64,000 nucleotides of DNA from Catajapyx aquilonaris (lineage: Eukaryota). The stretch lies in assembly GCA_000934665.2 (NCBI GenBank), contig KZ538814.1:62001-126000 (forward strand). The letters are read 5' to 3'. Of this stretch, positions 46,991-64,000 are shown in pieces. The notes under the pieces were generated by a model. It did no database searches, was not told the origin of the DNA, and worked only from the letters and a program-made list of their open reading frames with translations. The number at the start of each line of letters is the position of its first letter. Position 1 is the stretch's first letter. The translations under genes were made by a program, and so were the position numbers.

Positions 46991-49748
46991 GTAAGTGGTT
47001 AAGGTGAACCATAGCATGATGGACCCTTTTGAAAATGACGGGCGTGAAATGACAACTGGATACATAAAGTCTTGCCTTTTCGGGGTTTTTTTTTTTTGTA
47101 GATGGCGGTGCCACGTCCGATTAGAAAATTGCACATAGGGTAAATGCATGTTTGTCATTCCCGTATACCCATCACATGCCGGCATGCATTTTTTTCTATG
47201 GGGTGCCAGGCGATTACTTCCATAGAACTAATTGCAACATTGCATTCAACACAAATTCGACATTGATTATGTTGTTGAGGGCTTTGGCTCGTGCCACGTA
47301 AACTTTTTATCCGCACATATTTGCACAGGGAATATTCGGTATCGGTATTTTACGTTATGTAAGGAAAAATGATAACGGCCGTAGAAAAATTCGTCAGGCC
47401 ATAATGAGAGAGAACAATAATAGCGAATCGAATGTCCTAGAGGCGAATAGATCTTAATGGCATCCTTAAGGGGAGAAAATACCGATATAGAACTGGCATT
47501 CAAAATGTCAAAAAAACTTGCATTGGCCAAAATTTGGCCCTGCATTGACCGATAAAACCTCAAAAAAAATCTCATCTGGTACGCATTTTAACTTTAAGTT
47601 TATATTCAGTTGTTTTTGCAGAGGCTGTAATTATTTTTTTTTCAAAATGCTGAATTTGGCACTGAAAATTCAGTCACCTATTTTATTCCAAAAGTTATTG
47701 GCTCATGTTGTGTGTTAATTATCTTTCGACATTATAAAGATGGTCCGAAATAGCTAAATATATAGCAGTTGAGCCGCTGTAAGAATAACACACCCCGCGG
47801 GTTTGTTATAACCCGACGTTTGGCATGACAAGGTGGACAAATTGAGCAGCAGCGTTAGGAAACAGTCTGGAAAGTGTATATGAAATAATGAGGCGGAATA
47901 TGGAGTTGTCCGGGAGGTGGTCTGAAACCTCATTAATCAAACAATCAAAACCTGTTGAAACGAGCAGCTGAGGAGAATCCAGTGTGTGCAATGGTCATAT
48001 ACACAGCACAGTACTGAGGTTATTGGGTGTCCGGTCGGAATCAGGCGTTTGTTTGTGGTAATGCTATAGCATGAATTAATAACCTGAATTCTCATTTAGT
48101 TCCCCCCCAATCAGAGCTCGATGCCAATATAACTCCCATTTTAAAGTTGTCCCTTCTGATTTCGTAAACACAGGAGCCTGTGAATAGAGGGTTTCGAAAG
48201 CGACTTGGTCATGGAGTCTTCGGAATCTGCAAATTGGGCAGTCAGGTCCTGAATATAGATTGGGCAATTAGCACCACTAACCCTAGTTCAATTTGGAGCA
48301 AGTACTAAATGTTAACGTGGGCAAATTTTGGGATCCTCATCTCGTGGGAATATGGCAAAAATGGCTCACAAAGGTGGAGGAATGAAAGGAAAAGCATACA
48401 TTATTCCCAACTATGTATATCTACTGGGGATTCGGTAGGGAGTTGTGCCCTGGTCCTACAATAGGATACCTGAACTGGAAACCAGAAACTTTATCTTCCA
48501 GATTGATGAGTTTTTATTCCTCCGGCAGCTTCGGGTTGCGTTTTTAAAGCACTTTTGGGAGGGATGATGAAGCACTGGAACAGGTAGAGGACTCGTGGGG
48601 GAAGTTTTACTGCCTTTTTAGCATAAGAAAAGCCTCCAGTTCCAAGCATACGCGTGTGTACCAAATATCGGAATCGTAATTTATTTAAGCGTGTTAAATC
48701 TTGCAGAAGGAAGCTAACATTGCTGGATCCACCCGCACTCTCTCTCTCCCCCNTGTCCTTTTGTGCGGGTATACACAGCAGCTGAGCATTGCTGTAGCAC
48801 AGTTTGCAGCAGCAGTCCTCCCCCATCCACCCAGCAGTACCCCCCTCCCCCCCATACCATATAAGCACTACTTCGCCATATGGCGGCCCCAACGGGTTGC
48901 GATGAGGGTCCCAAACTTTTGCTAACCCCACCACACCCAACCAGATCCCAACCCAACTTTTTGGGGGGTGTACTGGAAAAAGGGACTGCATACTATATCA
49001 TTTTTGAGAGCGGGTGGTCCAAACTCATCCTGGTGTATCTGCAACCTGTCTGTTGCACCTGTACTGCTATGGCCTAGTGGGTGAGGATATACAGAATCGA
49101 CGCGCGCATTCAAACAGGCAGGTGGGCCAATTACAGGGTGTGAAAAAGGTGCACATTTCGGCCTCTTAAGGACCTAAGGGGTGTCGCAAAGTCCTATCTA
49201 TTCAGCCTGTGGCCAGTTTTTTTTTTGGGTTGGGAACTCAGGTGGCTTTTTTAGGGCATTTTTTGCTCACTTACTTATCGCACCCTAAGGATTTTTTGCA
49301 GTGAAAGGAGGGGGTGCCTATGCTAATTAGTTGACCGGAAGGGTGTGGAAGTATCTTGGACAAACCCTCGTAAAAAGTGATAAAAACTGTGGGGGTATTC
49401 AATAGTAGAGGGTCAGATTTCCATATTTGGCCACACGCTCGTCAGCCCTGTACTTATTTTATCCCTTACCATTCTTAACCTTCCTTAGGCTCCATGAGAG
49501 CCTGACCAACGGGAATTATTACAACGGTGTTCCTCAACTAGTGGACAAAGAATTCACAGGTGTTTCTGGGGGGTTCGGGATGGTGCCATCGGAAAGGACA
49601 GCAGATATTTTCTAAACGGTTATTGGAAATTTAATATTACACAAATATTTTGGAGGCTTCTTGTTGCCATATCAAAAGTGATTCGAGCATATTAAAAATA
49701 TACGCCCTGTGATGACACTGGTAGGCAGGGTGAGTCAACGGGGAGATA

Positions 49749-50297
49749 CACTGCTATCGAAAAAGAGGCTCATTTTTTGGTAACTAACAGACAATGAGGA
49801 GCTACTGCTAAGTTGTTAATTGCGTCATATTGCAGCCTGATAGCTGTTGAAATTAGTTTACTCCTGACTTACCACGATTCTGAATACTAACAGGCATGCT
49901 CTGAAAATGGTAATTATTATATCTACCAAACTCCAATATCGCATCTAATTGGAGTAGGCTATTTAATAGCCTCGAGCACAACAGGACGTGTGTTTTTTTT
50001 ACGTGGTAAGATGTAAGCTAATTTCAGACAACGGCTATTCAGTTGTAATACGCCACAAATTACAACTTAGCATTAGTTACGACTGGAATGCAATGCGCGA
50101 CAAATAACAACTGGGCATTAGCTGCTCCCAAGTGGTCTAGTGGCAAGGACACCTGGCTTTTGCCCAGGAGACCCGGGTTCGATTCCCGGCTTGGGAAGTT
50201 TTATTTAATGCCTAGTGTTATTATTACCATCCTAGAATTAGCTGCTCATTTTCTGTTATTAGTTATCGAATAATGAGCTTCTAGTTTGATATCAGTG
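49749..50297. mobile_element. Non-autonomous TIR element (MITE) carrying a tRNA gene, copy 1
   Basis: TA|CACTGCTATCGAAAAAGAGGCTCATT... at the left end and ...AATGAGCTTCTAGTTTGATATCAGTG|TA at the right end form ~55 bp imperfect TIRs. Nested internal inverted repeat at 49801-49861 / 50013-50077. Confidence 0.8.
50126..50197 (+). tRNA. tRNA with a Glu-type body but anticodon TTT (anticodon-shifted tRNA or pseudogene)
   Basis: Cloverleaf: acceptor TCCCAAG/CTTGGGA, D-stem GTCT/GGAC, anticodon stem CCTGG/CCAGG with loop CTTTTGC, T-arm CCGGG-TTCGATT-CCCGG. TTTT follows at 50199-50202. Differs at 5 of 72 positions from the copy at 61451. Confidence 0.8.
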
Positions 50298-51784
50298 TAT
50301 CTCTTGTGTTGTCATACCATGCTGAGTGTTCCGATACAAGGTGTTGCAAGAAGGATTCTTTCATGAGGGGCGTACAGGTCAAAGATGTACTATTCAGCTG
50401 CAAAGAATATACATATCCATTAATTACATATTCTTGGTAAAGAAAACTTGCTTCATCAAAATGATTTGCTAAAATCAAATAGTTAAATCGGCTTATATTA
50501 AGGATGAATAAGTTAATTTCTGTCAAAAACCGTTATCTCCACTCCGTATATGAAAGCCCCCATCTGCAGCACCCACTCCAGTAGCTCAGGATAGGTGATA
50601 TACACTTTTTCCCCCTTCCTGCCATACACTATGCACCAAATTCAAGTGCCCGCATACCGAAGGTGCTTCCGGCATAGATTAGAACTCTCAGCCTGCAGTT
50701 CCAAACCTATACTTTTCTCCGAAAAGGTGTTCATCTGGAGAAGAGATAATGTGTTGGACAAAGGAAGGTGCATTAATGAAAAGAAAATCGTACATTCAAT
50801 CCTTGCTGCAAAACTGAATGAAAACGAGGTCAGCATTTAGCCTATAATTTCATTTTAAAATACGTCTTTGCAATGTGTAGATGAGTTTACAACCTATTTT
50901 TCTATTCATGTATGTTATTATAGACATAGTTTCATGACAAAAATAGTTATATTCTTGGAGATAACCCCTTTTTTGTTGCACATGATATTTGATATTGATC
51001 ACCTATTTCGTCTATCTTTGCCACACTGTCTAAATTCAAGTAGACAAGGCACCTGAAATTGAAGAGTTGGCAAGTGAACAAAATCGAGCTAATTATTACC
51101 ATTCAGTTACATGTTTTCCCTGTTATCTAGGAAGTGTCATAGGGGGAGATAATTTTTTCCCCGTCAACCCCTTCATATTACTATACATGCCGAATCATGT
51201 AGCCTGTTCCTATATGACGCTTCTTTTATCGCATGACCTCACACCCCTGTTCAATCATTTAATATAGGGTAACCTTAAAAGTCGATGTCCCAACTTGCAT
51301 CACCGATTTCAAGTCCTCATCTGACATAAAGCTACGACCTGTTACTATGGAATTACTTTTATGCTGAAAAAACATAACATCTGCACACCCCATCTGATCT
51401 TCTCAGTTCATGACGAGTCTAACATTAGTTGTCACATTGTTTTCGACATTCACCGCGATCCTCCACGTAAGCCACTTCCTCGTACGTCGTGTATACTCGT
51501 AATGAATGACCTGACCAAATTACGGCAGACTTAGTGCTTGACCTATAGGCGGGACCCCATTATACTTGTCGCCAAGAAATTTAATGAGCTTGACCAGTGC
51601 AGGGCCTGTATACCTGTGGATGTCAATAAGAATGAAAGCTCATTCAGAGTACCGGTGCAGTGTAATTGTTAGACGAATTGAAAAATCGCCATCTGCTTGT
51701 CATTAGCTATTTAAAATTACCCTGTTGTATAGGCTTGTGCTTCGATCTGGGGAGTTTATTGTGGACCATGGGATGGGCAGGATG

Positions 51785-52170
51785 CATGATCAGTAATTCC
51801 CCATTCTTTCGGGTTTTACGATTTATTGGCCGGTTCTAAGACCAAAATAATATAGGCTACTCTACATCAACTTTGGCTTTGATGCTTAATTACGGTGTGT
51901 GCTGGCAATAATTCCCATCTACTTACCCCCTTCTTCCATGGAGCCCTTCAATTGTATCTTGATTTTGTTAACCTTGCCTGCACAATGTAGGTAATATTGT
52001 GTACAGCACACCTCACGTTTAGTAGCCCTGCTTGACGGGTCATATGTTGTGCAGGATATTCCCTATACTGCAAATCAAACTTGTGGTCGCATGTAGTATT
52101 TAAATCTCGATGTCAAAAATGACTCAGAGTATTTTGTATGTAGCCTAGTAGCAAGAGCAATCCGGCCGGA
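51785..52170. mobile_element. MITE family B copy
   Basis: TCAGTAATTCCC, TTCTAAGACCAAA, TAGGCTACTCTACA and TGCAGGATATTCCCTATAC are shared with the 29.3 and 32.4 kb copies. Confidence 0.65.
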
Positions 52171-52662
52171 TTTGTTTTGCTGAATTTGATAGGTCTCTAT
52201 AACTTCTAATCTGGAGACGGTAGCATTTCCAGTTTGTTAATGAAGAAAATCCGCGTCCCTATCAAAAACGTAACTTTAAAAACTCGTCAAAATTATAATT
52301 ATGATGAGAGCTTTCTGCGTGCTTTTCTTCGAGGCAATTCCCGCACTCACTTGTACGGCTGTGATTTTTTTAAACTTAGTCAGGCCTTCAAGGGATCGTC
52401 CTCTTTTCATTAGTCGCCAGAAAGAAGACACCTAAGTAATCAGGCATTGTGACATCAACGTGTTTGTTGCAAGTGACAGAGCACGTGTTGACACTCAAGT
52501 GTAAAATGACTTTTGTCGCCTCATGTTGTGACCAATTAGCGGCTGCCCTGAAGATTGTGGCATTTTTGTCTGATATATCTGATGGACGTGTAAGACAGGG
52601 CAACTTGCCAAAAAGATCTGGAACACTTATGGCACATTATAGTTATAAAGTATTTTCATCAT

Positions 52663-52909
52663 GGAGGCAGGGTGATGTATAATGTTAGCTCCACAGCCTT
52701 CCACTTCTGAAGCCCCGAGTTCGATCGCCGGATCTGGCAGAGTCTCATGTAGAAAAAGTTTAGTGGGTTCTCTCTGTGTTCGCGTGGGTTTTTGCGGTGT
52801 TCTCCCGTTTCCTTCTACAATCAAAATCCACCCCACAGCGCAGCCACTGAATAAAGTCTGGTGATTTAACGAGGATGACCTAAAAGACCACAGGTTTATC
52901 ACCCTAACC

Positions 52910-52943
<34 letters not shown>

Positions 52944-52958
52944 GTTATTGTTATTATT
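52663..52958 (+). mobile_element. tRNA-derived SINE with V-domain-like core
   Basis: B-box-like GAGTTCGATCGCC at 52717. Core TTCTCTCTGTGTTCGCGTGGGTTTTTGCGGTGTTCTCCCGTTTCCTTCTACAATCAAAA resembles the V-SINE conserved domain. (ATT)n tail. Confidence 0.8.
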
Positions 52959-53875
52959 CATATAGGCCATGTGATCAATCGTATGAGCAACCTCCTGCAT
53001 CTACCAAAATCAAAAGTAACGTTGTTCTATCAGAGTGTCTCTTGGTCAGTTGGTACACTGTAGTACAAGGTATAAATCGTTGCAATTAAGTGATATCTTG
53101 CTTACCTTATGATGACTTGTGAAATAACTTACTGATGGGACGAATAAGACTGCGCACGTGGCTGCTTGTTTCTCTGCCTCAAACTACAACACAACACGTA
53201 CTGCACACGAAGAATAGTTATGGAATCGACCAACTGTAAGATTTTTACAATATAATTGTTGGTTTCATATAATAGATTCAATAGATTGTTATTTTGAACG
53301 GCACATTCTGGCAATGCACTGATGCAATCGCTCATCTCTTCAATAATCACTGATTCGATTATGACAATTAGAAAATGAAATAACTTATGTGATGCTTTGT
53401 TCTGCGAATATTACAAAGATCAACACTAGGCCACTTACTCTTACACTGAAAACTTGGTATGTGTAAATGTAGTACACTTGGTACGGTATATATACATATA
53501 GATGCATATCAGTGCAATGTGACACGAAATATGTAAAATTATGCACTAAAGCGTGAAATGATACGCACATGTTGTGTAACAATACACATCAATATTATTG
53601 CATTAACTGTGTTGATACACCTAATGTGCATCCTTACGCTCTTCAATGCATAATTTTACACATTCAGTGCCAAATTACACAGGCAATCATTATACTGTAC
53701 TGTATATGCACCAAAGTTCTCAATGTATTTAGGGTTTCTATAGAATGTGGCCATATGATGTAGGCTATTCATTTCCATACTTTTTAAAAGAGCCTGAGAG
53801 TTAGAAATCCGTATAATGACAAGTCACTTGTCATAGAGACCTTGTTAACATCATTTCTCCCAGCGGCAAACCAAG

Positions 53876-53949
53876 TGCAAAAGGCTCCTTGTTTATGTTA
53901 GTAATATGGTTGTAACCATAATACTGACATCATCAAGGAGCCTTTTGTA
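53876..53949. repeat. Near-perfect 74-nt palindrome (hairpin)
   Basis: CAAAAGGCTCCTTGTTTATGTTAGTAATATGGTT-GT-AACCATAATACTGACATCATCAAGGAGCCTTTTG. Confidence 0.85.
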
Positions 53950-54283
53950 TGAAGCCTGTATACAACGCCTTCAGAAACTATCGTCGAAGTTGCCAGTTCC
54001 GAAAGCTCTGCTGCTGTGATGGCAAGCAGAGTATATAATTGTAGAAGGATGGGAGCAACATAATGCAGGACCGATATTTAGAAATTTATACTTGATAAGT
54101 TTTTAGAAAAACGTTGCACAAGGAGGCTGCATAGAAGTCACGATAGTCCTATGCTATTTGAATGATAACTCTATAATACCGGACACTATAATATTACTTC
54201 AATATCAGTGATTCTAAAGAAGCAATATTCTTGACATCCCAGACTTTGTATACCTAATACGGTATATCGAATTATGACAGGTG

Positions 54284-54487
54284 GCCGGCCGGTGGTGTAG
54301 GGGTTAGGGTCAGCCTTCCCCTTCTGGATAGGACAGAGGGCACTTTCTCAAGGGTTTCAATGGGGTTTCTCCGTGTTCGTGTTAGTTTTCTCTGAATTCA
54401 TCCTTTTCCTCTCACAAATCAAAATCCATCCACGAGGAGAAGAAATACGGTGATAATTAAAAGGATTCCCATGAGAGGCCACAGGCC
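54284..54487 (+). mobile_element. Degenerate copy of the V-domain-like SINE
   Basis: Shares CAGCCTTCC.CTTCTG, TTCTCCGTGTTCGTGTTAGTTTT, AATCAAAATCCA and CCACAGG with 52663-52958. No tail; it abuts a MITE. Confidence 0.65.
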
Positions 54488-54501
54488 TGGGCAACCAATT
54501 A

Positions 54502-54925
54502 GGGGAGAGGGGGGCAAGTTGAATCGCGGTGCAGGGTGAATCAAATCTAATAACAATGCATTATTTGGTAATGAAGAAATTGTCGCATGTTATATGGACA
54601 AGAGTTTTTAAAGTGTTTGTAGTGCAGGGCAGATTGAATGGGGTGTGGGGTATGTTGTACCACATGACATGACTTGACAAGATGTAAATCTCACGTTGCC
54701 CATGGGCCAGATTCCATTTATGGCCTTGGCACTTTTATTTTATGAACTTTACACTCATGTCATTGGCTAACATAGGTTTTTAGCTGGATTTATGGATTCA
54801 CTCTCCTCCTAAAGTGTTTCATCTTATCCCATGGGATGATTCACCTTGCGTCATACAATAATTCACCTCGCTTCAACGATGATTCAACGATCCTTAGAAC
54901 GTGATTCAACCTGTCCCACCAATGT
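54502..54925. mobile_element. Putative MITE with GTTGAATC/GATTCAAC subterminal repeats
   Basis: GGGGGCAAGTTGAATC at the left end is inverted with GATTCAACCTGTCCCACC (54903-54920). Several internal GATTCA motifs. Ends are approximate. Confidence 0.45.
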
Positions 54926-56559
54926 CCGTGGGCCAAGTTGAATCACTTGCAGATCTAATACAAACGTGCTGTAATATTGCTGCTGATGTAGTAATGTATT
55001 AGTTGGAGAGCTTCAACAGTGATAACAATCTGAGCAAGCAGATGAAAGTAGCCTAATTTGGGATAAAAAATGAAATACCAAAATTATTATACCTGCAGTT
55101 TTGATGGACAACCATTTATTTCTCTCTCCAGCCGCTTCCTTCCTTACCTATCCTTGGCCCCATCCAATGGTTGTACTCCACCCCCCTAATGGAGGGCCGA
55201 TTCTCCCAATGGGGTATAAATAAATAATAAATAAATAATTTCTCTCTCCAGCGTGATCTAAAGCAGGTGACCTGTCCCGATATTTATTAATCCGAAGCTT
55301 GAATTTAAGTTAATTCCCGATTGAGAATTGGAGCAATATTGGCATCCAAACCTCAATGATATAACAAATTTTTTCTAGACTATAAGATCCCTTTTCTCTG
55401 CTTTTCTCCTTGATGCATTAAAAATGATGGGTTCAAGCAACTTAAGGTTATTTTTAACAACTTCTAAAAGGTTCTGTTCAAAGGTAAATGTAAGCAGCTT
55501 AGGACGAACAAATTGTCAACTAAAACGGACACCTGCCTTAGAACTCACTGTGTAATTATCTGCGTAGGCTTAAATCCTGATTTTTTCGCTGCAAAAATGG
55601 TTTTAAAAAACTAGAACTCACATTTTAGCCAAGCGTGCGTTTAAAAATAATTGAAAGAACTTTTCTGACTGAATCATCATTATACTTTGGTAATAATAAT
55701 CGTGATGATTATAGCACAGGAAATATTACTCTGTACTTTTTAATATATCAAGTGCAAAATGATGTTTACTAAAAGGTTATAGTAAGCTTGCATTTTGAAT
55801 GCACAACGCACAAGACATTAGAAGAATCGTTGGTCGTACAGTGTTGTACCTCATTGAGAAAGTCAACGCAAACGTATAGAGAAAAGTATATTTTTATTGC
55901 GAATTATTACTCATTATCGGAGATTTCACCCGATTTGTGTCGATACAACCGACTTAAGACTTTAAATTTATGCTCCTTAAACAGTCGAAATTTTCCAGTC
56001 ACGGTTGACTGGAGATCATTATGATTGATTCACTGGGTTAGTGTAAAAAAACAGCTGCCCGTCATGTCAAACATCAAAAGTACTTTATACTGTTAAACTC
56101 TCATGTGCACTCAATAAATTTTTGATCAGGCACGTTACTGAGTCTCTTTACAGGACCTGCGGGCTTGTGAGAAAATTACAAAATGGAAATGTCCGCTGCT
56201 GCGTAGATCAGATCTCAGCATAGTTATAGGTAGGAGAAAAAAATAGGCCATAGGCCATACCAGCAGCGTGACTAATGCCCTTGCGGAAAACTTGTTGTCT
56301 ATATTGTCACGGCATTGCATTGACACCTCATGTGGCATTGCTGTGTACCCCATGAGTCATTTGTTCACATCCATTGGCAACATAGTCTTCTGAATCCTAA
56401 CAATATCTTGCACACCCTCACTTCTATAAACGAATAACCAAAATATGAATAGCGTCAATCACTCTATCAAAAGGGTTCGATAATTGCCAGTTTAAGTGTC
56501 ATACGATCTGGGCAGATTTATTCAGCTCTATTAACACCCACTAACCTGGCCTAACCTAA

Positions 56560-57330
56560 CCATCACTCCCCCTAATTTAAGGACCAACGAGTGCCCCCAA
56601 CATCTCCAGCCTGATGCCCAAAATCAGGTAAGTCCACTGAAAATACACGCTCCTGAATCGGATCGAAGTTGGCGCCAGTTGAGCAGCGCGTTCAAGTTGT
56701 CCCCACCGTCCGCCAGAGTCCACTAGTGTTGTATCCAAGCGCGGGCTCGACGCAAAGGCAGCCTGCAGACTTAGAGCAGCCGCACTCAGGCCCACACGAT
56801 CGCCCGCTCTAAAAGACACCCTCTCCCGTTTTCCCCCCAAGCCATCCTCGTGCTTCACCCAACCACCCACTATACACATACATACTCGATAGGCAGTGTC
56901 GCGTCTTTGCACTAGTATCCACCTCCTCGTGACGTCATCGCCACGCCTTCTCCATAGTGTGCTCTTTTTTATATATAATATTTTTAAGGTGTTGTGCTTT
57001 TTTAAGTGTGTTTTTTTTTAAAGGGAGGATTGACCACATGGTGTGTTGGTGTTTGGTCCGGTGCGTGGGTTTATACGGAGTGGATTGTGTTTTTTTCGGT
57101 GGTGTGATGTGAGAGAGGAAAAGAATATTTTGGGGGGTTCCAGTGCTGGCAAGATCGATCCACGGCTGCTTCTGCGGAGCAAAGATGGCGGACTGGAATT
57201 GGGGGAGGATGGAGTTTGGTGTTTTCGGGGGTGAGGGTAGGGGGTGGTTATGGGGAAGGGTGTGTGGAGGGGGTTTGAAAGGACATGGAGAGAGAATAGA
57301 GATGGTTTTAGGCAATTTTGTACTATTGTG
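56560..57330. promoter_or_regulatory. Putative, possibly bidirectional, promoter island
   Basis: CpG-rich. Perfect CRE TGACGTCA at 56930-56937, TATA-like TTTTTTATATATA at ~56965-56977, YY1 consensus AAGATGGCGG at 57182. The + strand switches from C-rich to G-rich across the centre. Confidence 0.45.
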
Positions 57331-59394
57331 CATATTAGGACATGTGAGTCAGGTGACATATGTATACATGTGCACTCGGCCATTTTTGATGAGGCGCGAT
57401 TGCGTGTTAAAACCGGACCTGTTGCTGCATATGGACACCACGTACTATACAGCTAGGTGTTTTTTTTTTAAAAAAAACGATATCAGGTAGGGGAAATTAT
57501 AAGTTTTGGTGCATAAGTCGGACGTCTTTTGATGGATGGGTTTGAAAATTGCGGATCCGAACCTAAAATTTGCGCCAAAACTTTAGGCCTATTAGCAAGT
57601 TTTAAAAAATGAGGCCAAATATATCGCTACTCTGGATTACGGTGGGCAAGAGTAGGGAGCTTAGCATAATTATTGCACTAAATTATTTGCAACCGATTAA
57701 CTGGACATGGGTACCTAACAAGGTGGGAATAATTCATGACGCATATTGGATAACCCAAAAACTGAGCAGTTATAATGACACTGAACGATCTTAAGCAGAC
57801 ATGTGCGCTTCCCAGTCGGGGGTACGATTTGGTCAAATTTAATAAGAGTCGTAATGAGCACCCCGGCGATTTTCCCAAATCAATTGTTAACTTCGGCGTG
57901 TTTCTTTAAAAAGACTTTTATGTAGGCCTCTGTCTCATTATGGTTTTTCGCGCGTAATGAGAGTTTTGCCGGAATATGAAGCGCGGATGGACTTCGAGGG
58001 AGGCAAATGAATGTGAGCCTGCACGACAGGATCCATTTTCGGAACACAGCCCCCCCCCCCGACCCCCACCCCCTAGCCCCCCTACCACTGCCCTTTCTGC
58101 TTATGCCAGTTAGTTTGCCGGACCTCCGAAATTAAGGTTGGGAGTGCCCCAGACGTGATTACGCTAGGAGCCGCATAAATGGCGTGCGAACATTGTCCCA
58201 AATTATTTGGAGAGTAGATACTCGTTTTAAATTGTGGGCATTACTGAGCGGTACTGGGTATGACAGGTTTTGTATTATGCCAGTGTGTGCCTGATTAAAA
58301 TTTGAGCCGGAGATGGGAAATAGGATGGGGATTCTATGCATGGTTATGTCGACAGGTGGTTATGTAGTCTTATGTGTATTTTTATGGTACCTCCTTGTAT
58401 GGTACTAAGATTCGAACATGTGTTGCTATTCGTATAATTCGGCCATGTTAAGTGGCAGTTGGAGAGGTGCGGTCGGCCGTTAGATCGTGTGAAATAATTT
58501 TCCGGTTTATGGACGATATGATTGTTACACGTTTTCGTTAATAGGGCGATTATGTTCCGGTTGCGTGTGGTCGGTATAGGCCTGTTGTAGATATTAATAA
58601 AAAATGGCATAGTATGACTGGTATAGATGGAAATCGCTTGATCTTTCGATATAGTATCGCAGACTTAGATGCAACAGTTCTTTCGGTTTAATACGTTGAA
58701 CTGCATTCCGCCGAATTGCATATCCAAGTTACCTTATTGTCTGGACGTATAAATTATGCCAATTCCATCCGGAATTCCATGCGGTTATGTTCTTGTATGC
58801 ATGAGTATCTTTGATACGTTATGATTTTCACATGTATTTTTTATGCGGATGATAACACCAACCACGTAACGTCGGCATTATTAGAGACTTCATGTGAAAA
58901 ATGGGAATCTCGATTCACATGGGAAGTAGACCATGTGGTCCACGATTAACTCCTCACGCTACATGAACCGGTAATTTTTATTCGCCAATTCAATCCGAGT
59001 GTTGTTTTCGCAAGGACTGTATTCGATATTCTATTAATGCGCATATGAACACATAGGCCTGCAATTCAGAAAATATTAATAACACACATATTTGGATTCT
59101 GCTTTCAATAATAAGAATCCGGGCTTGTCTTGCTTGAGTAAATGACCATACCTGCATTGCTGCCAGCAATAGATTTTCCTAAAATTTCATAGATCTAGAT
59201 ACACAGCGCGTCCCCTCTTGCGCCAGCCCTCTTTCCCATTCGCAAATATTCCATACCCAGCACCAGAAACTGAAATTGTATCGTAAAAACAAATGGCTTA
59301 TTTAACTTATATTGGTTCCCCTTATGGGCTATTAGTCGTGTACTTCTAAACTGGTGTTTCAATTCTTTTCAATTCGCGGCTAACTTTGCAGCTG

Positions 59395-59878
59395 GCTACA
59401 TTCTGCTGTTGTTAATAGTGTCATATTGCAGCCTGATGGCTGCGGAAATTAGGTCACTTCAAACTTACCACCTTCATAAATGTAAAAAAGTTTTCCCTTT
59501 AAAATACAACCTATTGTTCCGTATAACGGGCGTGTGTAACGGCCCAGAACAAAAATGACTATATGAGAGGAAAAAAAATTAATTTTTATGTGGTATGACT
59601 CGAGCTAATTTTTTCAGCTTTTGGGATGCAACAGGCACAAGCAACAACTTAGCATTAGCAGCTATTGAGATGCATTACTCCGGAAATAACTAAGCATTAG
59701 CTGCTCCCAAGTGGTCTAAGTGGAAAGGATACCTGGCTTTCACCCAGGAGGCCCGGGTTCGATTCCCGGCTTGGGAATTGTCTATAATGCTTAGTATGAT
59801 ATCATCATCATCGTCATCGCATTAGCTGCTTAATTTTTGTTGTCAATTACCGAACAAAGCCTCTTATTTATGGAACTG
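59395..59878. mobile_element. tRNA-carrying MITE, copy 2 (left TIR missing or degenerate)
   Basis: Collinear with copy 1 (GTTGTTAAT..GTCATATTGCAGCCTGAT.GCTG..GAAATTAG; ACAACTTAGCATTAG; tRNA). Right TIR ATTAGCTGCTTAATTTTTGTTG...GCCTCTT. Confidence 0.7.
59705..59777 (+). tRNA. tRNA-Glu: tRNA-Glu (anticodon TTC), one extra base in the D-loop
   Basis: Full cloverleaf with anticodon loop CTTTCAC, A-box TGGTCTAAGTGG and B-box GGTTCGATTCC. Resembles the canonical metazoan tRNA-Glu(TTC). Confidence 0.9.
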
Positions 59879-61118
59879 TATACACTTTCTTCAATAAGAG
59901 GCTTTGCTCGATAATAATCACTGGCTGGTACAACTCCGGTGATTCTTGGTCCTGTCTTGTAATGATGTAGGCTCCAGGTATTAGGACAAAGTCACCTCCC
60001 AGTCCTCTCCCAAGGCAAGAAATGTGGTGCATGAAACTGTGTATTCTTAACCGAATGATTTCTGTTGACACACTATTGGAACAAGTGGTGAAGCGCTGTT
60101 TGAATATCCTGTTGAATTTTCAAGTAATATAACCTAACCTTCTTCAATATCCACCAAAACTATATGAAGTTTGATGCAGGCTTACTAAGCACTTAGGCGG
60201 AACCTTGCACATACTCTCAGGATCATAGTAGGGGCCTGAGAAATCAACACTTATGGACCAATAATTATGATTAGAAAATATTGCCGATCATGGGATATTT
60301 TATGAATAACAATATTCGTCAATATGTCACTCTTCATTTCGATATCAATTTGTCAATTGCAGACTGCGCAACTCCTTACACCTGACTACCAAGGTTATTC
60401 GCAAAAGTCTTTCACATACAAAATTGCTTCCGTGGCTCTAGCGCACCGGAACGTCCCGACGCCATATGTCGATATTTGACTCCGGATATGATTCTGGGAA
60501 CCTATGTAAGAGCGAAAGGCTTTTCCCCGAATCCAACTCTTGAAAATGCATGCTTACAAAATATATTCAGTTTTTTTTTTTACCTTCTTGAAGAAGCTTT
60601 TTTGCTCCAACATCCCCTGCATGCAGTACTTGTCTTGCACTGCCGCTTTTTTCCGCGTGCCTAACTAGGTCTGAAACCCGCTACCGGTAATAGGATACAA
60701 ATCTATAAGAAAGTCTTATTAGAGAGTCGAAACATGAGATTCGTAGCCTTCGTTATATATACTGAAGCAAACGATATTAGTGCACATCGATCCTTTGCCT
60801 ACGTCCTTAACTATGATGTGATGTGAATAGTCTACAATTCTACATGAATATATGGAATAAAAAGGCTTTTTATCAATCCTGTTTATCCCGCTCCTCATCT
60901 CATCTGAATTGATCCTCTATATTCACTCCATTATTGATGTCATTACGCTCCAGTCATTTTCGTCACCGCACTTGGCCAATTACTTTCTGATCAACATCAA
61001 TACAGGTCTACTAGTTTATGACGGCCCTCATGTTTTAAATCGCATGTTAGGGCACGTGCCTACTCTAGGGCTAGTTAAAGCTGCACAGTGTTGATGTCGA
61101 GGCAATATTGGATGTATA

Positions 61119-61616
61119 CACTGGTATAGAAAAAGAGAGCCATTTTTGGTAACTAATAGGAGATAATAGAACAGATGTTATTTGCGGCATATTGCAACTC
61201 CATATAGCTGCTGAAATTAGCTTGCTCATAATTTACCTCGTTTGTGCATATAAATTCTTCCCGTTGAAATACAACCAATTTGGTGTAGGCCTATTAAGCG
61301 CCAGTGTCCCGTCTAATGGGCGTATGGATTAGCCGCGGGCACAACAATGACCGCCGGAGAAGCTGATTTCCATGGAATAGTGATGCGAGCTAATCTCAGT
61401 AGCTATTGGGTTATAGTATACTACAAATAACAGCTTTTAGGAATAGTTGCTCCCAAGTGGTCTAGTGGCTAGGATACCTGGTTTTCACCCAGGAGACCCG
61501 GGTTCGATTCCCGGCTTGGGAACATTTCCTCATGCTGTGGTTGTTATCGTCGTCGATTTAGCTACTTATTATCTGTTACTAGTTACCAAATAATCCACCT
61601 CCTTTTCATAGCAGTG
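61119..61616. mobile_element. tRNA-carrying MITE, copy 3
   Basis: TA|CACTGGTATAGAAAAAGAG...TTTGGTAACTAA at the left end and TAGTTACCAAA...CCTTTTCATAGCAGTG|TG at the right end. Internal ~50 bp stem at 61177-61229 / 61383-61431. Confidence 0.8.
61451..61522 (+). tRNA. tRNA-Glu: tRNA-Glu (anticodon TTC)
   Basis: TCCCAAGTGGTCTAGTGGCTAGGATACCTGGTTTTCACCCAGGAGACCCGGGTTCGATTCCCGGCTTGGGAA: 72 nt, all four stems intact, anticodon loop TTTTCAC. Confidence 0.93.
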
Positions 61617-64000
61617 TGTGCCTCCAAAGTTGCCTTACCTCTTCACAAGTGAGAACAAGATCAAATTTAATTCATACTTAACTTAAAGTCACGTGTAACT
61701 TGACATCAACATGGCAATATACACTACCAAATATGCTATGCGCGATATAACTATTTTGGAACTTGTAAAATCGTCAAATTATTGATACCAAATCACTAAA
61801 ATGTACTCTCGGCCAAATATTAGTACGACTTTTCCTTCGGTGTGCCAATGTCACTGCATTGAATTTCTACCTCTACTTCACTCTGTCACTCTTGCACTCC
61901 AACGCCTATTCCTCCACCACCTCCACCAACCATTCCAACATAGCAAAATTGTCAATGTGGTGCAGAGGTTGTGACACAGTGTAGTGTCAGAATACAAAAG
62001 GAAAAACCATTGATCCGCAACAATGTATGGTCGATGGCACATAGTAGGCCTATACATCGCATCATATTCGCACATGTTTGCTTTGTCCAATATGAGGACA
62101 CTTGATTCGAGTCGCCTCCAGATGAACCAAGATGGGCGGTGGACGTGTCGATATCGTCGCAACGGCAAATGTCGAGTCAACGGGAAAGGGTGCCTGGCCA
62201 CAAAAAGGTACAGCGACACTAAATTCTGTCCTACGAGTGACGATAACCAATATTCACGCTGTAGATTGCACGAGAGTATTCAAAGGCACTATGGCAACGC
62301 TGCATGATCGTCGATGTCGCCAGTTACCGTCGTTGGCGAGGACATTTGTGATTGTTCCACACTTGCTTTAGGCCATGTCCAGACTTGACATATTGTTGTC
62401 CTATGTCGATATGCCCACTATATCGTGTCGAGTGTGAACAGTATGGAATGTGAGATATTTTAGTTGGTGTGGGCATTATGCTTGACTTTTCACGTCGTAA
62501 CTTCATATAGGTGTCTGTTGCGGTACAGACACTGGAATTAAGATATTTGATGACGCATAGGTGTGCTATTTTGAGGTTACCCGTGATGGCAAGTTGCAAG
62601 CATGTATAAGCAAATAACTTGTGTGGGTGTCCATAGAAGCTGGCTAGAGAAACAGGCCATTATCGGTATTCCAGCAGCAACATGAAGTACAAACCTAATG
62701 TACTGTAATTTTTCTCCGCAAATTAGCAAATCCAAATGAATGAATCATGTGAATGAGTAGCATGCACGTTTTAATTAGGCGAATGTTTATACCTTGAAAA
62801 ATTCACGTCTAGTCAGGCGAATTGTATTGTGCGTATAAAAAGTGCACATGTAACACGCATGAGCAGGTCAATACTTTTACGTGCTAATACATCGAAGTTC
62901 AAACTTGGAAAGAATTAAAGCTACATTTCACTCTGCATGAATGAATTTTAATTTCTCATCAGCAGAAGTTGCTTATTACGGCGAAATAGGACTACAAGGT
63001 GCATGAGCAACAAACTTGTTTTACAATGTGAAGTGCATTTTGAATACATTACGTCATTTACCAATTCACCCTCCACCGAGCAACTCTTCACGTGTGTCTT
63101 TCACTCCATCGATTTCATTGTCACTGATATAATACTGCAGCCTGTCCTTTGGAGTAAAATCAAAATTTTACATTTACTGCATACTTCAAGGGGGTTCATA
63201 TTAACTTGTGTAAAGCCATGTTACTTTATTCACATTTTCATTGTATTAGAAAGTAGTGTGCACAGGCCATCACAATAATACGAAAAGTAGCCTACCCATA
63301 ATTCAAAATTGAGATGAAAGTGGATCCTTCAATTTTGTACTTTGCTAAATTGACAGTTTGCCTGAGTTTTCACCTTCTACAAGCTTACCTTAGCACTATC
63401 CTTGAAATCAGACTTTGCTAAAAGCCTGGTGGTACGTCAGCAGCCTGATGGTTAGCCCTTCGACCTTCACGTGCGATGGTAGACTACGGAAGTTATTGTT
63501 ACATCAGCGATGAAAGTGACATTTGGTCAAGTCTGCTTTGTAATATGAAACCCTAAAAAAGAATAATTATTAAATTCGGCTTATGGAAAAATGGGATAAG
63601 TGCAAAAAAATGAATATTTTCAAAATATTCTCGGACCAAGATAGTTTATCCACAATTTTCAATCAAATAGACTTATTATAATAATGCTAACTAATGTTTA
63701 CCTTCCTGTTTCGGTAAAAAAAGTAATTTTGTCCAGCACAAATGATCAATGAATCGCATTATTTTACAAATTGGGCAAAATATGAACGTTAGTTTTCTCA
63801 TGGGAATTTGTAACAACTTCCTATAACTTGTATGAAACAATGTGCAATTATTTGAAACAAGTTGTGTCGGTGGTTTTAATACATTTCTGCACTTGTAGCC
63901 ATGTTCATTGCCACAGAGAAGGTGACACTCGAAAAAAATCAAAGGTACGAGTCACAGTAGGTCAGAAATCCGTTAACAACACAAAAGAAAAGGTTCAAAA

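Follow-up and report, generated by a model that had tools for sequence, protein, structure and literature searches.

Three homologous units of about 500 nt, all on the + strand and within 12 kb, were found in the window, the 64,000-nucleotide (64-kb) stretch of Catajapyx aquilonaris DNA analyzed here. Each unit holds a complete tRNA gene in one arm of a fold-back structure. With moderate confidence, we regard the units as a composite mobile-DNA relic, in which a fold-back element with a retroposed tRNA module was copied as a whole unit. The first unit (c1) spans 49749..50297 from CACTG to CAGTG, as judged from local alignment, inverted-repeat analysis and folding, and its fold-back symmetry reaches to about 49715-50329. 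The second (c2, 59403..59880; local alignment and upstream search) lacks the outer left terminal inverted repeat (TIR) and has the right end AACTG. The third (c3, 61119..61616; alignment and folding) again runs from CACTG to CAGTG, with symmetry to about 61100-61635. The unit sizes were 484-549 nt. In the local alignments, 49746-50318 of c1 matched 61116-61639 of c3, and 49805-50305 of c1 matched 59403-59887 of c2. These alignments bear out the three homologous units in the same orientation that a preliminary description of this DNA had proposed.

The TIRs of c1 and c3, also reported in that description, were about 56 nt long, starting with CACTG and ending with CAGTG, with matches of the 42/56 type. 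The left arm of c1 (49743..49876) was continuous and paired with 50303-50242 and then with 50076-50002. The right arm consisted of an inner part at 50002..50076, identified from the inner inverted repeat, and an outer part at 50242..50303, identified from the arm pairing and equal to the right TIR. The nested inner fold-back described earlier was recovered in c1 as the pairing of 49802-49876 with 50076-50002. In the unit fold-back, the arms were about 130 nt and the loop about 125 nt. Compared with shuffled sequences, the DNA folds gave z = −13.9 for c1 and z = −7.3 for c3, and both were long hairpins with the tRNA as a side branch. Inserts of 165 nt in c1 (50077-50241) and 131 nt in c3 (61436-61566) divided the right arm and held the tRNA; the left arm was unbroken in both. 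For c2, homology was found only from 59403; no left end was detectable upstream of this point, and 294 of 500 shuffles equalled the best match. Immediately after c2, with zero spacer, 59881..59915 was an inverted copy of its own right TIR (83% complementary), and none of 500 shuffles attained its score of 23. Upstream of the tRNA, c1 and c2 had in common a duplicated stretch of about 45 nt that was absent from c3. Concerted evolution between the arms of a single copy was rejected on the site patterns (outer and inner arm, respectively: within-copy 3 and 2, same-side 2 and 4, cross 1 and 2).

The tRNA was located in a module of 106-116 nt, which breaks only the right arm. The first base of the module is base 1 of the tRNA, a triplet-repeat tail stands at its end, and a 9-nt direct repeat flanks it. 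In c1, the upstream copy of the repeat ATTAGCTGC (50117..50125) abuts base 1 of the tRNA, the trailer (50198..50236) ends in a triplet-repeat remnant (GTT ATT ATT ACC ATC), and the downstream copy follows at 50237..50245. The same repeat was found at 59696..59704 and 59821..59829 in c2. This 9-mer occurred four times in the 64 kb, always flanking the c1 and c2 modules, immediately before tRNA base 1 and then 106-116 nt on. In c3, both corresponding places held diverged versions, AATAGTTGC at 61442..61450 and TTTAGCTAC at 61557..61565. No CCA followed the tRNA, and the trailers, which were homologous between the copies, ended in (RTY)n triplets. Because of the base-1 start, the triplet tail and the 9-nt repeat, the module looks like a retroposed, SINE-like tRNA copy rather than a capture at the DNA level. 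Accordingly, the view of the tRNA as captured cargo was retained insofar as it is a passenger interrupting one arm, but the signature is one of retroposition and not of captured genomic DNA.

Several SINE-type features were present in the module, namely a tRNA-related head with an internal promoter, a simple-repeat tail and a target duplication, but a tRNA-unrelated body and many dispersed copies were not. Only about 20 nt lay between the tRNA and the tail, with no tRNA-unrelated or LINE-derived body. By a rough reading of contig depth, the T-arm of the module was shared by at most some 10-14 copy-equivalents. With no LINE-derived body and so few T-arm copy-equivalents, the module does not represent a typical SINE family. 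Two other repeats were observed in the neighborhood. One, 2.5 kb away at about 52660-52965, has a tRNA head and an (ATT)n tail; the other is an insert of 105 nt bordered by a perfect 15-nt duplication (55118 and 55238). Both were very abundant in genomic contigs, and they are retroposons of the same style as the module.

A full cloverleaf was found in all three units, in line with the preliminary description, with scores of 62.6-68 bits against Rfam RF00005 (gathering score 29). As annotated with ARAGORN and Rfam, the c1 tRNA (50126..50197; 68 bits) has a Glu-type body, a TTT anticodon and G at position 37, the c2 tRNA-Glu(TTC) (59705..59777; 62.6 bits) has one additional D-loop base, and the third is the tRNA-Glu(TTC) of c3 (61451..61523; 67.1 bits). 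The claimed tRNA-Glu identity thus applied to c2 and c3, but c1, with its TTT anticodon, is not a plain tRNA-Glu. A run of TTTT began 2 nt past the tRNA in c1, and the first such run lay 57 nt downstream in c2 and 80 nt downstream in c3; the copy with the TTT anticodon was therefore the only one of the three with a T4 run within 10 nt. The box A and box B regions were intact, judged against the consensus. The three pairwise comparisons of the tRNAs gave 67/72, 67/72 and 68/72 matches (93-94%), compared with 60-66% identity in the remainder of the unit (Fisher p 6e-7 to 2e-9). On inspection, the differences between the tRNA copies were in loops or changed a G-U pair to G-C. This excess conservation indicates that the tRNA was kept by selection or gene conversion, and that the passenger, being far better kept than its carrier, is not mere junk. 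The tRNAs may still be expressed at the present day.

In the preliminary description, the tRNA had been spread by a transposon family. Profile searching of the 64-kb window found three copies in 12 kb and none in the other 52 kb, and no extra contig cover was seen outside the tRNA at a likeness of at least 80%, a threshold at which copies 60-79% alike would be missed. These results do not establish such a family. The contig depths of the unit bins (summed per bin, likeness at least 80%) were 28.6, 49.2 and 84.6 against about 29-35 beside them, with 336 at 61488, and the excess presumably comes from the tRNA. As a rough measure, the depth at the tRNA was about 10 times the baseline, compared with about 700 times for the neighboring SINE core. 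Profile and Pfam searches of the window revealed neither copies without the tRNA nor empty sites nor an autonomous partner, and none of the four contig joints listed spanned a unit. The suggested check for a transposase-bearing partner gave no Pfam hit among the 131 stop-to-stop ORFs of the window (at least 75 aa and without X), including the ORFs of at least 75 aa that overlap the units. Sequencing run X5, from another sample, gave next to no cover over the units. The junction pattern of repeat and tRNA start was found in no metagenome contig and no viral contig. The tRNA 5' pattern was found in public collections at seven loci (eight rows), and these were rejected as relatives since BLAST and ARAGORN showed unrelated tRNA clusters alike in the tRNA part only. 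The proposed MITE nature was consistent with a non-coding, TIR-bounded fold-back of MITE size.

The limits of homology between the copies bear on the main alternative, namely that unequal crossing-over or replication slippage, without transposition, locally duplicated a tRNA-Glu gene along with the palindromic sequence around it, and that the inverted ends are a remnant of the block. This is possible but somewhat unlikely. Three same-strand copies within 12 kb, with no others in the window, also fit local duplication and are the counter-point to the composite relic. The missing end of c2 likewise favors local duplication, as does the lack of added contig cover beyond the tRNA at a likeness of 80% or higher. 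In addition, tRNA genes reportedly give rise to local and non-local copies (PMC4981973). However, the likeness of c1 and c3 began 3 nt before CACTG and stopped about 21 nt after CAGTG, although the aligner was given 400-nt flanks, and the right homology boundary of c2 coincided with those of the other copies. Neutral flanks of equal age would be expected to remain alignable, since the shell itself aligns at 60-80%. Furthermore, the units are spaced 9580 and 1745 nt apart, which is not a tandem arrangement. As the preliminary description had stated, the DNA between the units was not homologous: BLAST and profile searching across the window matched the three units only. Since the homology between copies stops at the unit ends, the cluster is not an ordinary tandem tRNA array, in agreement with the same description. 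The unit-exact boundaries also make mobility of the composite unit plausible, though unproven.

Another explanation is a dispersed CMC/EnSpm-type MITE family that captured a genomic tRNA-Glu as DNA, spreads it and alters tRNA gene dosage. In its favor, the TIRs of about 56 nt start with CACTG, the tRNAs are full-length and conserved, and TA adjoins three of the four ends of the full copies c1 and c3 (TA/TA in c1, TA/TG in c3) as well as the right end of c2. CMC/EnSpm elements are recognized by CACTA/CACTG termini, a 2-3-bp duplication and a CMC transposase; CACTG was present at the claimed ends of c1 and c3, and a transposase was absent from the window. A TA flank fits Tc1/mariner-type elements equally well. 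The inverted symmetry ran on for 24-31 nt outside CACTG/CAGTG in c1 and c3 in a test anchored at the ends, with scores of 10 and 12, to each of which the CA of CACTG contributed 2, against a null with a 99th percentile of 5 and a maximum of 11 of 2940. Flank palindromes were not significant in an unanchored search over 200 nt, nor was homology between the outer 40-nt flanks of c1 and c3 (sum score 26, p = 0.14). Because the symmetry continues outwards, the CACTG points are not demonstrably termini, and because TA is also self-complementary, a target duplication of the shell is indistinguishable from the continuing inverted repeat. The proposed CMC/EnSpm type is therefore not callable. Homology did stop close to the ends, 3 nt away on the left and about 21 nt on the right, but without a clean 2-bp TA duplication. 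Capture by such a family is improbable, as the palindrome extends past the supposed termini, the 9-nt repeat and tail indicate retroposition, no high copy number was seen at 80% likeness or more, the depth at the anticodon loop (roughly 10 times the baseline) is hard to reconcile with large numbers of copies bearing the tRNA, and one tRNA (c1) has lost the Glu anticodon. Finally, it is highly improbable that three fold-back copies already in place were each hit independently, at one and the same 9-nt target, by a site-specific tRNA-Glu retroposon: sequence-specific retroposons exist and the module is flanked by the same target sequence in all three copies, but the insertions would have had to agree three times in both base and orientation, the trailers are homologous across copies, c1 and c2 share another duplication beside the module, and no empty shell was seen in the 64-kb window.

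For the composite relic, the course of events may have been as follows. A non-coding MITE-type fold-back element with ends CACTG...CAGTG would have received one insertion of a retroposed tRNA-Glu module in its right arm, with a 9-12-nt target duplication of ATTAGCTGC. The composite would then have been copied whole, giving three same-strand copies within 12 kb, most likely by short-range hops with transposase supplied in trans. Afterwards, the shell would have decayed to 60-66% identity, while the tRNA was held at 93-94%, by selection on a Pol III-transcribed tRNA or by gene conversion from other tRNA-Glu genes. A bolder version, which we consider unlikely, is that a cut-and-paste shell with a retroposed, fully working tRNA-Glu built a local tRNA cluster by short hops, with the passenger selected in each copy and c1 remoulded to UUU (Lys-reading).

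Like MITEs and fold-back elements, including nested MITE-in-MITE cases, the unit is about 0.5 kb and non-coding, has long inverted ends, folds as a whole into a hairpin and shows inter-copy homology that ends at the inverted repeats. It differs from MITEs in that it is known from just three copies in a cluster, the window yielded no autonomous partner, the target duplication is not callable, and an intact conserved Pol III gene stands in one arm. The module resembles tRNA-derived SINEs and retroposed tRNAs in its base-1 start, simple-repeat tail, 9-12-nt duplication and lack of CCA, but it is low-copy, has no unrelated body or LINE-derived 3' part, and bears a complete cloverleaf rather than a degenerate head. 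No description of a eukaryotic MITE with an intact tRNA gene was found in the full-text literature searched, a coverage that excludes Repbase/Dfam and most subscription journals.

Cassandra TRIMs (and Ajax) are described as retroelements with 5S rRNA gene sequence and a Pol III promoter (PMC10946416). As in Cassandra, a Pol III gene travels in a repeat arm of a non-autonomous element; unlike Cassandra as portrayed there (LTR, high-copy, widespread, 5S), the present unit is a TIR fold-back with a tRNA passenger and unproven spread. Dada DNA transposons are reported to target tRNA and snRNA genes, with a crustacean (Daphnia) case for U6, and to insert into the RNA gene, splitting it, with 6-7-bp duplications and no terminal inverted repeats (PMC3706591). 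They share the association of a DNA transposon with tRNA genes. Dada-type targeting, as outlined there, was ruled out, the tRNAs being uninterrupted and inside a TIR element. Nuclear tRNA genes are reported to undergo birth-and-death, local duplication and anticodon shifts (PMC4981973, PMC2997554, PMC3923123). As in that process, the units form a local paralogous cluster, with a changed anticodon on an old body in c1; unlike in it, inverted repeats border the duplicated block, whose anatomy is that of a transposon-like unit.

Families of tRNA genes turn over quickly, and to our knowledge local duplication and retroposition are the mechanisms that have been named for this. With three clustered old copies only, tRNA dosage would be affected slightly at most, and the case is for now anecdotal. 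The composite would combine two classes of mobile DNA, in that a tRNA was inserted through RNA into the shell of a DNA transposon and the unit was then copied. This combination offers a concrete and testable way in which new Pol III genes, with their TFIIIC sites, could be placed in a genome. If the bolder version were true, it would amount to a DNA-transposon-driven birth of Pol III genes, and if tRNAs are also present in related shells elsewhere in the genome, tRNA genes in this lineage could generally turn over by this route.

The units c1 (49749-50297), c2 (59403-59880) and c3 (61119-61616), all on the + strand, were compared in pairwise local alignments that could extend up to 400 nt into the flanks. 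Segment 49746-50318 of c1 aligned with 61116-61639 of c3, and 49805-50305 of c1 with 59403-59887 of c2. The homology of c1 and c3 started 3 nt before CACTG and faded about 21 nt after CAGTG. Neither BLAST with the units nor an nhmmer profile built from them turned up a further copy or fragment elsewhere in the window. No likeness was seen in the DNA separating the units, in agreement with the preliminary description.

The arms were mapped by aligning, for each unit, the left half with the reverse-complemented right half. The left arm of c1 (49743-49876) was unbroken, with partners at 50303-50242 and then 50076-50002, and the left arm of c3 (61108-61233) paired with 61627-61567 and then 61435-61376. 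The element is therefore a single extended fold-back, in which a loop of about 125 nt joins arms of about 130 nt. Only the right arm is interrupted; the insert, which holds the tRNA, measures 165 nt in c1 and 131 nt in c3. Single-strand DNA folds agreed with the arm alignments, and in them the tRNA cloverleaf formed a side branch (z = -13.9 for c1 and -7.3 for c3). Immediately upstream of the tRNA, c1 and c2 share a further duplicated stretch of about 45 nt that is missing from c3, so c1 and c2 are sister copies.

In the 64-kb window ARAGORN predicted three tRNA genes and no more, each on the + strand: 50126-50197 in c1 (anticodon TTT), 59705-59777 in c2 (TTC) and 61451-61523 in c3 (TTC). They scored 68, 62.6 and 67.1 bits, respectively, with the Rfam tRNA model (gathering score 29); no other segment of the window reached the threshold of any Rfam family. 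A Glu-type body was common to the three, so the tRNA-Glu first claimed for every unit held for the bodies and failed for the anticodon of c1. Of 72 tRNA positions, 5 differed between c1 and c3, among them position 37 and the last base of the anticodon; the c2 tRNA had 4 substitutions and one additional D-loop base, and U32 was specific to the c3 tRNA. A TTTT run began 2 nt behind the tRNA in c1, 57 nt behind it in c2 and 80 nt in c3, and c1 was the only copy with such a run right behind the tRNA. Anticodon UUU with G37 on a Glu-type body makes the c1 tRNA a candidate for either a Glu-to-Lys anticodon shift or beginning decay into a pseudogene. Anticodon shifts have been described for eukaryotic tRNA families (PMC3923123). 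Separately, tRNA genes were densely clustered on two metagenome contigs (L003 and L004), with 5 and 9 genes in 1.3-1.5 kb; these contigs are from another organism and share only the 5' part of tRNA-Glu with the window.

The tRNA columns of the three-way alignment were 93-94% identical (67/72, 67/72 and 68/72), and the unit outside the tRNA was 60-66% identical (Fisher p 6e-7 to 2e-9 against the tRNA). Neutral decay of a tRNA passenger is excluded by this difference. By our reading of the sequences, the tRNA changes among copies were in loops or turned a G-U pair into G-C, and the regions that we take to be box A and box B were the same in c1, c2 and c3. Given the excess identity of the tRNA, either selection on a transcribed tRNA or gene conversion from other tRNA-Glu genes must have been at work.

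The way in which the tRNA module (tRNA, trailer and triplet-repeat tail) entered the fold-back shell is suggested by its borders. The 9-mer ATTAGCTGC occurred four times in the whole window: directly adjoining tRNA base 1 in c1 (50117) and c2 (59696), and after the tRNA at 50237 and 59821, 111 and 116 nt past the tRNA start. Diverged versions occupied the same two places in c3 (61442 and 61557). Since the matching sequence was present once only in the left arm, ATTAGCTGC behaves as a target-site duplication of 9-12 nt. Between the two repeats, the module began at base 1 of the tRNA, which lacked a CCA behind it and was followed by a trailer of about 20 nt and then five to seven degenerate triplets (ATT/ATC/GTC/GTT type). 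This combination of direct repeats, a tRNA from base 1 and a triplet tail is what LINE-driven retroposition of Pol III transcripts leaves behind, for example in tRNA-derived SINEs. From this signature we infer entry by retroposition, and the capture of a tRNA gene as DNA, as initially proposed, looks unlikely. Filler DNA captured during gap repair is a possible alternative source of the module. The module is best called SINE-like and outside any SINE family, because it has no SINE body and is low-copy.

The module was at the same place in all copies, which argues that it entered the shell once and that the composite of shell and module then multiplied. Transposition of the unit is plausible, being favoured by the c1/c3 homology ending at the inverted repeats on both sides, and by the right end of the c2 homology coinciding with those of c1 and c3. 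Against it, the nhmmer search of the 64-kb window gave three copies only, on one strand and within 12 kb, and any dispersal beyond this cluster is putative. Source-sample genomic contigs were aligned at a likeness of at least 80%, a cut that would miss copies diverged like c1-c3 from each other (60-79%). For the bins of the three units, the summed contig depths, which are not copy numbers, were 28.6, 49.2 and 84.6; neighbouring bins had 29-35. Locus-bearing contigs broke inside each tRNA (50168-50192, 59749-59755 and 61480-61493), and depth reached 336 at 61488, in the anticodon loop of c3. We read the extra cover as confined to the tRNA, at roughly ten copy-equivalents in depth sums rather than copy numbers. 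None of the four contig joints listed spanned a unit, and a sequencing run from another sample barely covered the region.

The CACTG/CAGTG termini with a 2-bp TA duplication could not be retained as stated, because inverted symmetry continued outside them in c1 and c3. In an anchored alignment of the left flank with the reverse complement of the right flank, c1 scored 10 (extent 26/27 nt) and c3 scored 12 (33/32 nt), 2 of each score coming from the CA of CACTG; 2940 random window pairs gave a 99th percentile of 5 and a maximum of 11. The DNA folds also paired these outer stretches, and their likeness between copies was not significant (p = 0.14). Possibly the real termini are situated 25-35 nt beyond these motifs and diverged quickly; alternatively, the copies could each occupy the central TA of a small palindrome such as another hairpin element. 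The TA on both flanks is explained equally by a continuing inverted repeat or by a duplication because TA is self-complementary. The shell may belong to CMC or be Tc1/mariner-like, and the flanking TA favours neither. No left terminal inverted repeat was found in c2. Its right one (59846-59880) abutted its own inverted copy (59881-59915) with no spacer and 83% complementarity, so that 59846-59915 is a perfectly centred 35+35-nt palindrome. This may reflect a rearrangement at the element end.

Retroposons in the style of the module lay nearby on the + strand. One, at about 52660-52965, was a tRNA-headed SINE-like repeat whose long tail of (ATT)n/(GTT) spanned 52911-52958; TTCATCATGG / TTCATATAGG may be its flank repeat, of about 10 nt. 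Contig depth over the core of this repeat (52764-52830) summed to about 22,800 compared with about 30 beside it, and tRNA-like heads were found on loose ends of other copies in the genomic contigs. The other, at 55118-55252, was an insertion of about 105 nt carrying an (AAATA)n-like tail, with exact 15-nt direct repeats on both sides (ATTTCTCTCTCCAGC, at 55118 and 55238, the only two occurrences in the window). The bin depth was about 9,200 compared with about 30 beside it, and the insertion resembles a short retroposon of very high abundance. Hairpin-forming inverted repeats at 53512-53680 (56-nt arms, 57 nt between) and 53878-53947 (34-nt arms, 2 nt between) are probably small fold-back elements. 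Pfam gave no match in the 131 window ORFs of at least 75 aa, and no coding sequence was recognisable. N made up 425 positions in seven runs, three of them 213, 175 and 33 nt long and four of a single N. The window comes from a gapped draft assembly and is poor in genes and rich in repeats.

Among known systems, the counterpart of the shell is a MITE or fold-back element, and that of the module is a tRNA-SINE. Cassandra TRIMs, in which a mobile element bears a Pol III gene (5S), are a parallel to the unit (PMC10946416). Dada transposons, whose targets are tRNA genes, differ from the unit in all their defining features (PMC3706591). Full-text searches of the literature gave no description of a eukaryotic MITE with an intact tRNA gene. 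The significance is modest, mobility and spread being putative. Taken together, this is a SINE-like tRNA nested in a fold-back DNA element; the two were copied as one unit, in which the tRNA has been conserved.
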